Positions 18,167 through 28,308 of a stretch of 64,000 bases of DNA are shown here, piece by piece (within the stretch, counting starts at the first letter, position 1; every line of letters begins with the position of its first letter). Source of the stretch: Thermoplasmata archaeon. GTDB taxonomy: Archaea; Thermoplasmatota; Thermoplasmata; Lutacidiplasmatales; UBA184. Below the pieces are notes generated by a model. The model did no database searches and was not told the DNA's origin. It worked only from the letters and a program-made list of their open reading frames with translations. The DNA is taken from the NCBI GenBank assembly GCA_050013595.1, contig JBEKEY010000002.1:1522-65521 (forward strand). The letters run 5' to 3'. The translations under genes and the position numbers were made by a program.

Positions 18167-19849
18167 CTACGGGCCCTCGGTGCCGGTCGCGTTCGGAAGG
18201 GGCGTCGGGACCCGGGCAGGCGAGGGGGCGGGAGAGGCGACCGGGCCGGTCATCTTCACCGTGAGCTCCTCGCCCCACGGGTCCGACGTTGTCACGGGGT
18301 CGCCCGCGTAGTAACTATAGACCATGTTGAACGCGAAGACGAGCTGTCCGGCCCCGATCACAAAGGCTCCGACCGAGGAGAGGAAGTTCAGGAACTGGAA
18401 GTTCCCCGTCCAGAGATAGTCGTAGACGCGGCGCGGCATCCCCTCCGCGCCGAGCAGGAACATCGGGAACAGGAGCAGGTTGATCCCGACGTACGTCAGG
18501 ACGAAGTGCACCTGGCCGAGCGCTTGGTTGTACCAGCGCCGGGTGATGATCGGATACCAGAAGTAGATCCCCGCGAAGACCGCCATCAACGTCCCGCCGA
18601 GGATGATGTAGTGGAAGTGGGCCACCACGAAGTACGTCCCGTGGTAGAGGTAGTCGATCGGGATGGAGGCGAGCATCAGGCCGGAGAGGCCGCCGATGAC
18701 GAACCCGGTGATGAACGCGACGCAGAACCACATCGGGAGCGCCATCCAGATCCGACCGCCCCAGAGCGTCGCGACCCAGTTGAACGTCTTCACCGCCGAC
18801 GGGACCGCGATCGCCATCGTCGCGAGCATGAAGACGAAACGGACGTTCGTCGAGATGCCCGTCACGAACATGTGGTGCTCCCAGACCGCGAACGAGAGCA
18901 CCGCGAAGACGCCGAGAGCGATCGCCATCGCGCCGTAGCCGAAGATGTCCTTGCGGGCGAGCTTCGGCAGAACGGTCGAGATGATCCCGAACGCCGGCAG
19001 GACCATGATGTAGACCTCGGGGTGAGCGAAGAACCAGAACACGTTCTGGTAGAGCAACGCCCCGCCGAGCGGGGTGCCGTTCGCGGTCGCGAGCAGATGG
19101 GTCCCGAAGTTCCGGTCCGAGAGGACCATCGTGAGCCCGATCGAGAGGGACGGGAGCGCGAAGATGAGCAGGACCGAATTGATGAGGGTCGCCCAGACGA
19201 AGAGGGGCATGTTCCAGTAGTGGACGCCCGGCGCGCGGTGCTTCAGGATCGTAACGAGGAAGTTGATCGCGCCGAGCATCGAGGAGATCGTGAGCACATG
19301 GAGGCCGAGGATCCAGAGGTCCACCCCGATACCGCTGGCCTGGATCGAGAGCGGGACGTACCCGGTCCATCCGACGTTCGCGTTCGAGAGAATGAGGATG
19401 ATGCCGGCCGGCGGAACGAGCCAAAAGGCGATCGCGTTGATCCTCGGCATCGCCATCTCGCGCGAGCCGATCATCGACGGGACGAGGTAGTTTCCGAACC
19501 CCGCGAGGGTCGGGATGACGAACATGAAGACCATCAGGACCCCGTGCATCGTGAACAGGGTCGAGTAGACGTCGGGGGTGACGCCGAGCGTGGTCTGGGG
19601 GTTGAGGCCGAGTCCCTGAACGAACCCGAGGTCGGTGCGGATCAGGCTCGCGTAGATCCCGCCGATGAAAAAGAACACGAATCCGGTCGTGATGTACATC
19701 AGGCCGATCCGCTTGTGGTCGGTCGTGAAGACCCACTTCTTGATCGTCGGGACGAGCCACGCCCCGTGGTAGGAGAACGCCCAGAGGAAGAAGCCGGACA
19801 GACCGGCGATGAGAGCGACGACCGTGACCGGTACGGTGAAGTCGGTCAT
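18167..19849 (-). CDS. coxA: heme-copper oxidase subunit I
   Basis: 560 aa with WFFAHPEVY (CuB His), WEHHMF and 12-TM-like hydrophobicity. Confidence 0.95.
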
Positions 19850-24505: not shown

Positions 24506-25549
24506 TCACGCCGCTTCGACGAGGATGTTCTCGGTCCCGCCGGCGACCGCGCGGTCGATCGCGATCTCGGCGAGGAGCGAAAGGCATCCGGCACCGCGTT
24601 CGAGGAGGAGCGTCGCGGTCCGCACGGCCGCGGGCGAGCGGCCCGAGCGACCTCTCCGGGGCGAAAGGAGATTGGCACCGCCGAGCAGGATCCCTTGGTG
24701 ATGCACATCGCACGCGCGGTCGAGGGACGGGTGGATGAGGGTATCGACCACCGCCTTCATCTGGCCCTTGAGCTCGGGCAGGTACGCCGCGAGCGCGGCC
24801 GCCCCGGCCTCGGGGATCGCGGCGGCGTCCTCGTTGAGCGTACGCAACGTGGCGCCGAACAGGTCGGCGAGCTCCTCGAGGGCGTGGACGACGACCCGCC
24901 ATTCCAGGAGCTGGCGGGGGTCGGGGCTCCCGATACGGCGCGCGAGCGACCAGTCGCGGCTCGCGAGGAAGAGCTGGCGAACGAGGAGCGCGAGGACCTT
25001 TCCCGACTCCTCCTCGAGGGTCGCGAGGCGTCGGCTCCGGACGCGGCGCTGGACGACCTCCTCCATCTCCTCGAGGAAGGCGAGCAGGATCATCCGGACC
25101 CGTTGGACGAGCTGCGGCAACCCGTACTTCGAGGGGTCGATGAAGTTCTGGAGTACGACTCTCGTGGGCTCCTGCGCGACCACGGAGACCCCGAGGAGAC
25201 TGCGCGCCGTCTGGTGGAGCTCCTCGATCCGCTCGGGGGCGAGCGGCAGCTCGGTTCGGATCTCGATCGCGTCGTGTCCGACGCGGTAGGCGCCCACGAC
25301 CAGTCGTTCGAGGGTGCCGGGCGTGTCGAAGGAGCGAGCCTGCACGAGGAACGGCGCGTCGGGCGGGTCCCCACCGGGCAGTGGGGCGGGCTTGAGGAAG
25401 AGCGTGCCGTCATCGTTCTGGTCGAAGACGATCAGGTCCCCCGGCCGAAGGTTCATCGCCTCCGCCCACGGTTTCGGGAGCGTGACCGCGATGGAGGAGT
25501 GACCGGCCTTCAGGACTCTACGCTCTCGACTCGGGTTCCCCCACGCCAT
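24506..25549 (-). CDS. AbrB/SpoVT-domain plus PhoU-like repeat regulator
   Basis: The N-terminus is SSIAVTLPKPWAEAMNLRPGDLIVF (swapped-hairpin AbrB type), followed by helical PhoU-like repeats. This fusion is common in archaea. Confidence 0.7.
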   Translation of the reverse strand: MAWGNPSRERRVLKAGHSSIAVTLPKPWAEAMNLRPGDLIVFDQNDDGTLFLKPAPLPGGDPPDAPFLVQARSFDTPGTLERLVVGAYRVGHDAIEIRTELPLAPERIEELHQTARSLLGVSVVAQEPTRVVLQNFIDPSKYGLPQLVQRVRMILLAFLEEMEEVVQRRVRSRRLATLEEESGKVLALLVRQLFLASRDWSLARRIGSPDPRQLLEWRVVVHALEELADLFGATLRTLNEDAAAIPEAGAAALAAYLPELKGQMKAVVDTLIHPSLDRACDVHHQGILLGGANLLSPRRGRSGRSPAAVRTATLLLERGAGCLSLLAEIAIDRAVAGGTENILVEAA

Positions 25550-25640: not shown

Positions 25641-26354
25641 TCAGGCGTGGGGCGGTCCCTCGGACGACGGCGGGAGCGGCGCTCCCTCCGTCGGGGGTTC
25701 CGAGTAGCCGAGCCGCTCGGGCAGCATCTCGTGCATCGAGCCCTGGCGGCGTCCGACCACGAATCCGAGGACGAGCGCGATGACGACGAGCGAGACGATC
25801 GTTCCGATGATGATGAAGAGCGCCGCTCCGGGCTGCGGTGTGCCGCTCGAGACCGTCAGGTTGGCCGGAAGGTTCATTCCGAACGCGATGAACCCGTACA
25901 TCCCGGATTGGAAGTGTCCGGGCTCGGTGCAGACGAATTCGTACCAGCCGGGGCCGGGCGACGTGAACGTCCCGGGGAACGTTCCGACCCCGGACACGTT
26001 CAAGTTGAACACGATCGGCGGGCTCTTCCCGTAGACCAGGTTCGAGAAGTCGCTCGCGGAGATGCTGGCCGGGATCACCCAGCCCTCCCTGCCGATGATC
26101 GTGAACGTGTGGGAGACCGAGGAGGCGTCGGTGAACGAGACGGAGATGGTCGTGTTGGTCGGTACCTGCTCGAACGTGTTCGGCGCGTACGCGTAACCGC
26201 TCGACGCGGTGAGGTCGATCGAGTCGCCGGCGGCCACGCGGACCGGCTGGGCGCCGACCTGTCGGACGGCACCGACACCGGCCAGCATCGCGAGGACGGT
26301 CGCCACGGCGAGCACGACAGCGAACGCTCGCATCGGAAGACCCCGCCGTCTCAT
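25641..26354 (-). CDS. sulfocyanin-like type-1 blue copper protein, membrane anchored
   Basis: RRRGLPMRAF signal, SHTFTI (His ligand) and CTEPGHFQSGMYG (Cys-x4-His-x4-Met), with a C-terminal TM anchor. The start is set at ATG 26354. Confidence 0.85.
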   Translation of the reverse strand: MRRRGLPMRAFAVVLAVATVLAMLAGVGAVRQVGAQPVRVAAGDSIDLTASSGYAYAPNTFEQVPTNTTISVSFTDASSVSHTFTIIGREGWVIPASISASDFSNLVYGKSPPIVFNLNVSGVGTFPGTFTSPGPGWYEFVCTEPGHFQSGMYGFIAFGMNLPANLTVSSGTPQPGAALFIIIGTIVSLVVIALVLGFVVGRRQGSMHEMLPERLGYSEPPTEGAPLPPSSEGPPHA

Positions 26355-26414
26355 GCCCTCACCGGACAAATCTCGACCGCCCGCGGGACGGGGGGTCGGG
26401 TTCAAAGCCCCTTT

Positions 26415-26476
26415 GTACGAACCGGAGGGTTGACGGGGGCCTTCCGGCGCGCGAACGTCGGCGTTGCGGTTCGTAC
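26415..26476. repeat. perfect 10-bp inverted repeat GTACGAACCG ... CGGTTCGTAC with a 42-nt spacer
   Basis: Read directly at 26415..26424 and 26467..26476, in the divergent intergenic region between the sulfocyanin-like gene and coxII. Confidence 0.7.
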
Positions 26477-26615
26477 GCGGGGAATATGTAGCTGCAGCAT
26501 CCCCCTAGCCTTCGTGCCGGCGTCGCTCGGGACCACGATCCTATCGGTCGCGGCCGAGGGGCTCCGGAAGGTCGGGGCCACGGGAGAGACCGACCTTCAG
26601 CAGATCTCGCCGCTG

Positions 26616-26729
26616 ATGTGGATCATGGTCGCGATCTCCGCGGCCGGAGCGATCATCACGTTCGCGTTCTTGACCTACGCGCTCTGGAAGTACCGCGACC
26701 CGAAGGTGAAGCACCGTCGCTATGGTTAA
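26616..26729 (+). CDS. cytochrome oxidase subunit II N-terminal TM helix segment (subunit-IIa-like peptide, or 5' part of a frameshifted coxII)
   Basis: MWIMVAISAAGAIITFAFLTYALWKYRDPKVKHRRYG* is the tail of track ORF 25602..26729. In-frame GTG 26514 is an alternative start. The segment ends 8 nt inside the next ORF, in a different frame. Confidence 0.55.
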   Translation: MWIMVAISAAGAIITFAFLTYALWKYRDPKVKHRRYG

Positions 26730-27183
26730 CAAGCTCGAGGTCGCATGGACCCTCGCGACCGTGGTCCTCATCACCGGTGTGGCGGTGTACTCAACGATCC
26801 TCGTCTACCACCTGGACGCGCTTCCGACCAACCCGACCGAGTACGTGGACGTCACCGGCCACCAATGGTACTGGGAGTTCTGCTACCCCGTCAACGACTC
26901 CTGCTACAACTCTTCGTACGACGCGAGCACGAATTCGGTGAGCGGCGGAGCGTTATGGGCTCCTCCGGGCGCCGTCGTCCAGATCAACGTCACGGGGGCC
27001 GACGTCATCCATTCGTTCAACATCCCCCAGCTCGGGATCCGGATCGATGCGATCCCCGACCGGGTCAACGAGTTCGCCTTCACCGTGCCGAACGTCGCCG
27101 CGGGCACCGAGTATCTGATCCAGTGCACCGAGTTCTGCGGAACGTTCCACGGAACGATGCGCTCCTTCCTCGTCGTGACCTAA
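26722..27183 (+). CDS. coxB: cytochrome c oxidase subunit II (TM2 plus CuA cupredoxin domain)
   Basis: 153 aa with NKLEVAWT, HQWYWEF and the CuA site HSF...CTEFCGTFHGTM. Confidence 0.9.
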   Translation: MVNKLEVAWTLATVVLITGVAVYSTILVYHLDALPTNPTEYVDVTGHQWYWEFCYPVNDSCYNSSYDASTNSVSGGALWAPPGAVVQINVTGADVIHSFNIPQLGIRIDAIPDRVNEFAFTVPNVAAGTEYLIQCTEFCGTFHGTMRSFLVVT

Positions 27184-27276: not shown

Positions 27277-28308
27277 TCAGACATGATGGCCCGGCGACTT
27301 CGGTCGCGAGGGGAATCGGCCCGCGAGGGAGGCGACGGCCGTCAGGACGACTCCGATCCCGAGGAGGAAGGCCGACCCGACCAGCACCCAACCCTCCACG
27401 ATCGCCGCGCTCGGCGCCGCGGGCGGCAGGGGGACCGGAACACCGACGTAGAGGAAGCCGTACATGCCGTTCGCGAAGTGGCCGGCCACCTCGCAGATGT
27501 ACTGGAACACGCCCGGGGCCGAGATCGTAAAGTTCGCCCAGACACTTCCTCCGGGGACCGCAGGGACCAGCTGGTTCACGAGCGGGGCGTGGTCCGCGAA
27601 GTAGTCGGTGAAGTTCGTGGGCGAAAGGGTCACGTTCGACTGGGGCGCCAGCGTGAACGTGTGCCCGAAGCTCCCTACGTTCGTGACCTGCACGGCGATG
27701 ACGATCGGGTAGTGCGTCGGGGTCGCGGAAAGGACGTTCGGCAGGAAGGCGAGCGAGTCGGTGGTGTTCTCGCTCAGCGCGAGCCCGGCGGCCTGCGAGG
27801 TGATGTTGAGCAGGCCCCACATACCGGATTGGAACTGGTAGGGCACGACGGATGCGAACTCGAACGAGTCGAACCCTTCGGAGAGGTTGAAGGTGAGATT
27901 CGCCCACCCCTCACCACCGGGCGCGAGCGACACGTTCGCGAGGGTGCCGTTCGCCGCGAAGAAGGCATCCACCTGACCGGGTGTTAGCGTGGCCGGGAGA
28001 CGGGCGCCCGGCGTCTTCGCGAGCGTGAACGTGTGGTCGAAGCTACCGATGTTCACGAGATGCAAGGCGACCGACGAACCCGCGGGGACCGCGAGGAACT
28101 GAGGCGAGAACGAAGGATGGTCTGTCAGGTTGACGGTGAGGTTCTCGACCGTGCTCACGGGATGGGCGACCCCGACTTCCGGCGCGACCGGCACGATCGC
28201 GAGCCCCGCGACGGTCGGTAGACCGATCGAAACGAGCAGGAGGCCGCCGACGAACCACGGGAGCGCCCGCCGCAGGACCCGAGGTGTGCGGGACGGGCGG
28301 TCGGTCAC
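27277..28308 (-). CDS. membrane-anchored tandem-cupredoxin protein (one intact type-1 Cu site, one degenerate)
   Basis: 343 aa. Domain 2 has GHTFTL...CEVAGHFANGMYG. Domain 1 has DHTFTL...SVVPYQFQSGMWG (Cys to Ser, His to Gln). There is an RR-containing N-terminal signal/anchor, a C-terminal TM and many N-x-S/T sequons. Confidence 0.8.
   Translation of the reverse strand: MTDRPSRTPRVLRRALPWFVGGLLLVSIGLPTVAGLAIVPVAPEVGVAHPVSTVENLTVNLTDHPSFSPQFLAVPAGSSVALHLVNIGSFDHTFTLAKTPGARLPATLTPGQVDAFFAANGTLANVSLAPGGEGWANLTFNLSEGFDSFEFASVVPYQFQSGMWGLLNITSQAAGLALSENTTDSLAFLPNVLSATPTHYPIVIAVQVTNVGSFGHTFTLAPQSNVTLSPTNFTDYFADHAPLVNQLVPAVPGGSVWANFTISAPGVFQYICEVAGHFANGMYGFLYVGVPVPLPPAAPSAAIVEGWVLVGSAFLLGIGVVLTAVASLAGRFPSRPKSPGHHV

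Follow-up and report, generated by a model that had tools for sequence, protein, structure and literature searches.

Subunit II of an archaeal A-type oxidase is very probably encoded by two overlapping genes, split between its two transmembrane helices

Our analysis provides strong evidence that subunit II of an A-type oxidase is encoded by two separate genes in a Thermoplasmata archaeon of the Lutacidiplasmatales. The two genes very probably originate from the fission of an ancestral two-helix coxII, and their stop/start overlap would couple the translation of the second gene to that of the first. The locus lies in a 64,000-nucleotide stretch of contig JBEKEY010000002.1 (hereafter the window; all positions refer to it). 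The case is built on sequence and homology, namely on the conservation of the split among relatives, on the homology of the pieces to CoxII proteins made in one piece, and on the A-type nature of the accompanying subunit I. We further infer that the two genes are co-transcribed and coupled in translation, and that the small protein is expressed and present in the oxidase complex.

Read directly, the upstream frame runs (after cgc) through TAT GGT into a TAA stop at 26727..26729, and the downstream coxII frame opens with ATG GTT AAC at 26722; the two frames therefore share the eight nucleotides ATGGTTAA. An earlier note on this DNA had placed the break of coxII between the first (TM1) and the second transmembrane helix (TM2) at exactly this point, and it is correct to the base. 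It had also noticed that deleting one T of the TT at 26726..26727 restores the canonical junction of two-helix subunit II proteins, and with one T omitted the sequence indeed reads through as ...HRRYG-NKLEVAWT. The downstream ORF of 153 aa matches Pfam COX2 (E=1.8e-17) and possesses the CuA ligands (HSFN...CTEFCGTFHGTM), comprising the full set H...C-x-E-x-C-x3-H-x2-M. Its only hydrophobic helix covers residues 10-28. The upstream ORF is laid out as a periplasmic (T/S)(N/D)LQ-x-T stretch, TM1, the basic cytoplasmic tail KYRDPKVKHRRYG and the stop; its single strongly hydrophobic segment (residues ~34-57) is preceded by an acidic stretch. The two N-terminal helices that an A-type subunit II carries on one polypeptide thus sit on two ORFs, and this is the one true coxII copy in the 2.06-Mb MAG. 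The features of the locus are collected in Table 1.

Table 1. Positions of the oxidase genes and of putative control elements in the window.
Feature	Position	Strand	Basis
coxI, A-type, in a Rieske / cyt b / coxI / ctaA / ctaB operon	18167..19849	-	PF00115, 481 bits
Sulfocyanin-type blue copper protein gene, divergent from the coxII pair	25641..26405	-	Pfam SoxE PF06525, E=4e-6
Inverted pair GTACGAACC / GGTTCGTAC, putative regulator site in the divergent sulfocyanin/coxII control region	26415..26476		conserved
TATA-like GAATATGT, putative promoter for a leaderless mRNA of both genes	26482..26489	+	~25-28 nt 5' of GTG 26514
Small TM1 ORF, 71 codons, GTG start, very probably the split-off N-terminus of subunit II	26514..26729	+	conceptual fusion colinear with one-piece CoxII
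Stop/start overlap, proposed translational coupling (termination-reinitiation) site	26722..26729	+	conserved among relatives
coxII proper, 153 aa: N-terminal tail MVNKLEVAWT, TM2, CuA cupredoxin domain	26722..27183	+	Pfam PF00116

The small ORF may start at the GTG at 26514 or at an ATG at 26617 or 26626. In two loci of the same genus (L016 and L018) no ATG, GTG or TTG is found 5' of a conserved ATG at codon -34, and signal-like residues upstream of this ATG remain in frame. These two loci may use a non-canonical start, or the product there may be a peptide of 34 aa.

The locus differs from a continuous gene by one additional T, and no difference could be smaller; the genome is a MAG of 102 contigs. 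For this one genome, both facts would suit an indel introduced by sequencing or assembly, or a frameshift that recently inactivated the gene. However, four metagenome runs from peat yielded Logan contigs that cover positions 26560..26900 with zero letter differences and zero gaps; the four runs come from different samples and studies, one of them possibly being the source sample of the MAG. Furthermore, all 40 related species examined at the sequence level (49-99% protein identity) have the same gene split, with varied junction sequences and both ORFs intact everywhere. The indel suggested in the earlier note as one explanation fails because independent contigs agree and because the relatives are split in 40 of 40 cases, and we regard a sequencing or assembly error as excluded. 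The comparison of the junction in related genomes, which the same note had proposed, revealed no continuous orthologue among these species. Recent inactivation can be dismissed as well, since the small ORF stays open and free of indels in the genus-mates and accumulates substitutions of the coding type. Taken as one explanation, an artefact or a recent decay retains a negligible probability.

The genus-mates show this in detail. coxII was found in 21 of the 24 sampled genus-mates (58-99% CoxII identity), and in 21/21 an open frame around CoxII of 156-187 aa is accompanied by TM1 immediately 5' in another frame. Over the last 48 codons of the small ORF the 21 genus-mates analysed display zero indels and zero stops, and variability decreases from third to first to second codon positions. 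The median dN/dS of ~0.47 speaks for only moderate constraint. Gene callers predict the small ORF in 49 clusters of homologues, mostly with a length of 74 aa, and several of these have been named oxidase subunit 2 by the JGI pipeline.

The junction itself is conserved in its arrangement rather than in its letters. Overlaps of the identical length of 8 nt occur in 37 species that belong to two genera (the 21 genus-mates, 13 additional members of their genus and three members of a second one), and the small ORF ends there with ...R-x-(Y/H)-G-stop. Thirty of the 37 species share the junction ATGGTTAA; three have ATGGTTAG, two ATGGATAA, and one each ATGGATAG and ATGGTTGA. Within this overlap the stop is TAA, TAG or TGA, the glycine codon GGT or GGA, and the base following the stop C, G or T. 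Two more genera of the same family solve the junction in other ways. In the two species of genus g18 the last residues of the small ORF are ...SHP or ...VNP, and its TGA and the ATG of coxII overlap as ATGA, which is the opposite (-1) frame relation to the 8-nt overlap. In the single species of genus g17 both ORFs lie in one frame; the small ORF stops at a TGA, the ATG of coxII follows after a 6-nt spacer, and an AGGAG is found just 5' of this ATG. A conserved overlap or abutment of stop and start, as it characterizes coupled gene pairs, is thus found throughout (37 8-nt overlaps, two ATGA, one spacer), and an ATG is present at the junction in 40/40 species. In the CoxII tree the split proteins of the whole family form one clade (SH-aLRT 95). 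The 153-aa CoxII has 527 homologues, and the best 120 of these 527 measure 152-163 aa.

Such a pattern bears the mark of selection for ending one frame and opening the next at this point; neither decay nor a recoding event tied to one slippery sequence would be expected to leave junctions of this kind. The earlier note had also considered a programmed frameshift. In such a case the ribosome would pause at the stop of GGT-TAA and slip by one base in the +1 direction, and a complete subunit II with two helices would be made, with or without the two separate products beside it. One skipped T does regenerate the canonical junction ...G-N-K-L-E-V-A-W-T, +1 shifts classically occur where a stop codon in the A site is decoded slowly, and the junction is strongly conserved within the genus. 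Against these points stand the -1 relation in g18 and the in-frame stop in g17: because the frame relations differ between sister genera, no single recoding event suits all of them. In addition, the P-site codon is GGT or GGA, neither of which can pair again after a shift to the +1 triplet (GTT or GAT), and three stop codons with three different following bases have been seen. The Thermoplasmatales, treated below, have an ATGA with a GGAGG encoded just upstream, i.e. a plain coupling signal. The ATG is retained at every junction, and translational coupling therefore fits where frameshifting does not. We consider the programmed frameshift highly improbable.

With the reading frames established as genuine, the origin of the small ORF must be found in its relation to TM1. 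The nearest CoxII homologues outside the clade (39-48% identity) all possess 60-110 extra N-terminal residues, which include TM1. A conceptual fusion of the two ORFs is colinear with one such protein made in one piece (P0179) over residues 25-215 (E=9e-32), from the segment preceding TM1 onwards and with no break at the junction, and it aligns across the junction likewise with a second one-piece protein (P0180). Among solved structures the closest to the fusion is subunit II of the Rhodobacter sphaeroides aa3 oxidase, with the alignment beginning at residue 36 in TM1. Against this protein the fusion scores 89.5 bits and the CuA ORF alone 70.1 bits, so that the small ORF contributes ~19 bits. 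Within TM1 the fusion reads ...LTYALWKYRD... versus ...LILYAVWRFHE... in Rhodobacter, an ungapped YA(L/V)W(K/R)(Y/F). Pfam COX2_TM is hit by the fusion only, at residues 40-93 and below threshold (E=0.0065; 17 bits versus a cut-off of 22.8). The profile of the small ORF matches the TM1 end of the profile of one-piece proteins (hhalign, E=1.6e-4). When an HMM was built from the TM1 segments of 107 one-piece homologues, the small-ORF frame came second among 839 six-frame ORFs of the window, at E=0.11 with a short helix as target. The small-ORF profile found nothing under E=1 in PDB sequences, the query being a short hydrophobic membrane helix.

Taken by itself, then, the small ORF has no significant sequence similarity to TM1, for which it is too short and too hydrophobic. 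This would be in line with a further scenario, in which the upstream ORF codes for a conserved membrane protein whose unrelated helix was recruited beside a subunit II that had one helix from the outset, as in B-type enzymes, for which unrelated IIa helices are known (PMC3128077). The gain of ~19 bits against the Rhodobacter protein, the ungapped motif and the continuous junction speak against such a recruitment, as do the colinearity with P0179 from ahead of TM1 and the presence of TM1 on the same chain in all of the nearest homologues from outside the clade. The predicted orientation of the helix also is that of TM1 and not that of IIa. Net charges are -1.4 in the N-terminal flank of TM1, +4.2 in its C-terminal tail and -3.1 in the region after TM2. 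The predicted topology accordingly has TM1 running from outside to inside, a cytoplasmic loop, and TM2 running from inside to outside, which is the canonical one of CoxII. We regard recruitment of an unrelated helix as very unlikely. The comparisons support a small ORF that is homologous to TM1 of A-type subunit II and whose helix is predicted to lie in the native orientation.

The partner of the split subunit is an A-type subunit I. Its gene, 7 kb from coxII, encodes the helix VI motif AHPEVY, glutamate included, and together with the strong PF00115 match this identifies it as A-type (xGHPEVY plus a strong PF00115 match). All coxA of the Thermoplasmatota have been classed as A1 (PMC9287336). 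CoxII itself points the same way: its matches among solved A-type subunits II reach E=5.5e-20, and it compares at E ~1e-20 with aa3 subunit II versus 1.8e-7 with subunit II of the Thermus ba3 oxidase. Aa3 subunit II of Rhodobacter sphaeroides (2gsm_B / 1m56_B) and Paracoccus denitrificans (1qle_B / 1ar1_B) shows the same succession of TM1, basic loop, LE..WT, TM2 and CuA domain; among solved structures none match better in sequence, and the predicted topology is alike. The archaeal locus differs from them by the stop and the new start within the TM1-TM2 loop, and the protein would therefore be made as two chains.

Two other known arrangements resemble the archaeal one, each only in part. In the ba3 oxidases of Thermus thermophilus and Aquifex aeolicus the small one-helix protein IIa (CbaD) is encoded directly 5' of a one-helix CuA subunit II (PMC3141039, PMC3128077). 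IIa and the small ORF product are alike in that both are expected at the place of TM1 in A-type enzymes, and in that annotation often misses them or calls them hypothetical. However, IIa partners a B-type oxidase, its helix runs opposite to TM1 (PMC3141039), and it has no sequence similarity to TM1 (PMC3128077); the helix of the small ORF is predicted from charge to have its N-terminus outside and its C-terminus inside, as TM1 has. Pfam CoxIIa gave no match to the 71-aa ORF at E<=10, and the motif P-x(1-3)-G-(T/A), which together with a conserved Trp characterizes IIa (PMC3128077), is not conserved before the helix in the small-ORF alignment. The parallel with Thermus IIa drawn in the earlier note consequently holds as an analogy of function and architecture but does not extend to relationship; IIa is an analogue of the small ORF, not a relative. 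The mitochondrial cox2a/cox2b genes of chlorophycean algae, apicomplexans and scoliid wasps are natural fissions of subunit II with complementary products that reassemble (PMC5374615). There the break falls after TM2, within the extramembrane domain, with cox2a keeping the heme-patch region and COX2A both helices (PMC5374615), whereas the archaeal break falls between the two helices.

The arrangement in the window also has a published counterpart. The complex IV locus of Lutacidiplasmatales (TMEG) contains a coxB of 155 aa with one TM (AcS3-62_00358) (Sheridan et al. 2022, PMC9287336 Suppl. Data 9). The adjacent gene of 76 aa and two TM (AcS3-62_00359) is listed there as ‘UnF’, i.e. of unknown function (PMC9287336 Suppl. 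Data 9). Gene order and sizes match those of the window: coxB, small gene, divergent blue copper protein, tat, Rieske, cyt b, coxA, ctaA and ctaB. The terms ‘split’ and ‘subunit II’ are absent from the main text of that paper, and no earlier mention of a split subunit II was found in it or in Yelton 2013 (PMC3750248).

Upstream of the gene pair lies what is probably a shared regulator site combined with a leaderless promoter (26415-26489). The TATA-like element is kept in position and sequence in 21/21 same-genus loci. The two inverted elements between it and the sulfocyanin gene are the sole two copies of their kind in the window and are likewise kept in 21/21. The product of the divergently transcribed sulfocyanin-type gene is a probable electron donor to CuA. 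Two neighbouring genes deserve mention in their own right. Directly 3' of coxII, a gene at 27277-28308 (-) encodes a tandem cupredoxin protein of 343 aa with weak matches to SoxE and Cu-oxidase_2. Between tatA and the sulfocyanin gene, a gene at 24506-25549 (-) encodes a protein of 347 aa with an N-terminal AbrB/MazE-type domain (PF04014, E=5e-10); the published locus lists its counterpart as a 346-aa ‘UnF’, and the protein is a candidate for regulating the respiratory island.

Of the explanations listed in the earlier note, the genuine gene fission with coupling through the ATG/stop overlap is the one borne out, by the conserved split, by the TM1 homology of the fusion and by the ATG at each junction. 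In the mechanism that we propose, the ancestral coxII was broken in the cytoplasmic loop that joins TM1 to TM2. The first gene would give rise to a small membrane protein with a TM1-homologous helix, its N-terminus outside and its basic tail inside, and the second gene to TM2 with the CuA domain. A single promoter would probably drive both genes and give a leaderless bicistronic mRNA; a search for the stretch in RNA-seq runs gave no hit. Ribosomes terminating at the TAA at 26727 could then restart at the ATG at 26722, five nucleotides upstream, and this termination-reinitiation coupling would yield roughly equal amounts of both products. Coupling is here deduced from the overlap itself, because no Shine-Dalgarno-like motif precedes the ATG at 26722 in the genus. 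Finally, the two chains would assemble side by side on subunit I and restore the usual two-helix anchor.

A comparable split is seen in the low-GC Thermoplasmatales loci (L067-L075, and L082, which is E-plasma KI542675). CoxII has one helix here as well (148-164 aa), and the gene is preceded by a conserved small membrane ORF of ~82 aa. This ORF has two clear helices and ends with WED(F/Y)(R/K)-stop at the position of the loop, unlike the small ORF of the window with its single helix and different tail. Its Trp-Glu-Asp codons TGGGAGGA double as the Shine-Dalgarno-like GGAGG for coxII, and its stop overlaps the coxII start as ATGA. A profile-profile comparison of the two small-ORF families yields a weak but colinear match (E=1.3e-4). 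In the CoxII tree the Thermoplasmatales form a clade with an SH-aLRT of 100; they and the family described above are each monophyletic, and their mutual relation is a polytomy, so that one or two fission events are possible.

A fission between the two helices has been proposed, not shown, by Prunetti et al. (2011) as a possible origin of II and IIa. One could accordingly read both archaeal splits as a single old break of an A1-type subunit II between TM1 and TM2, common to Lutacidiplasmatales and Thermoplasmatales, after which the freed helix-1 protein perhaps took on a role of its own. We consider this joint scenario unlikely; if true, the step envisaged by Prunetti et al. (2011) would here be preserved in living organisms. 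The role in question might be that of an assembly factor or a factor controlling stoichiometry, or the helix might be shared with a subunit I lacking its own coxII on another contig of the MAG (C41).

Irrespective of the number of events, the split subunit II offers a TM1/TM2 fission that can be traced in sequence, and does so in the A family; before, such a fission had only been hypothesised in discussing the B-type IIa. It would assign a function to a conserved gene of ‘unknown function’ in a published complex IV locus, and suggests that an A-type oxidase can work with the anchor of subunit II divided over two chains. The hosts are widespread archaea of acid soil and peat. For annotation, our results imply that coxII genes of this kind should not be flagged as frameshifted or as pseudogenes, and in structural or biochemical work on Thermoplasmata oxidases an extra peptide of ~5-8 kDa is to be expected.

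The ORF on contig C41 (genome G000, locus L004, 349-3120 (-)) is a second and divergent subunit I-like ORF of 923 aa. It matches PF00115 with 238 bits over residues 85-540 and possesses a C-terminal extension of ~380 aa. No coxII adjoins it, and its upstream neighbour is a metallophosphoesterase gene.
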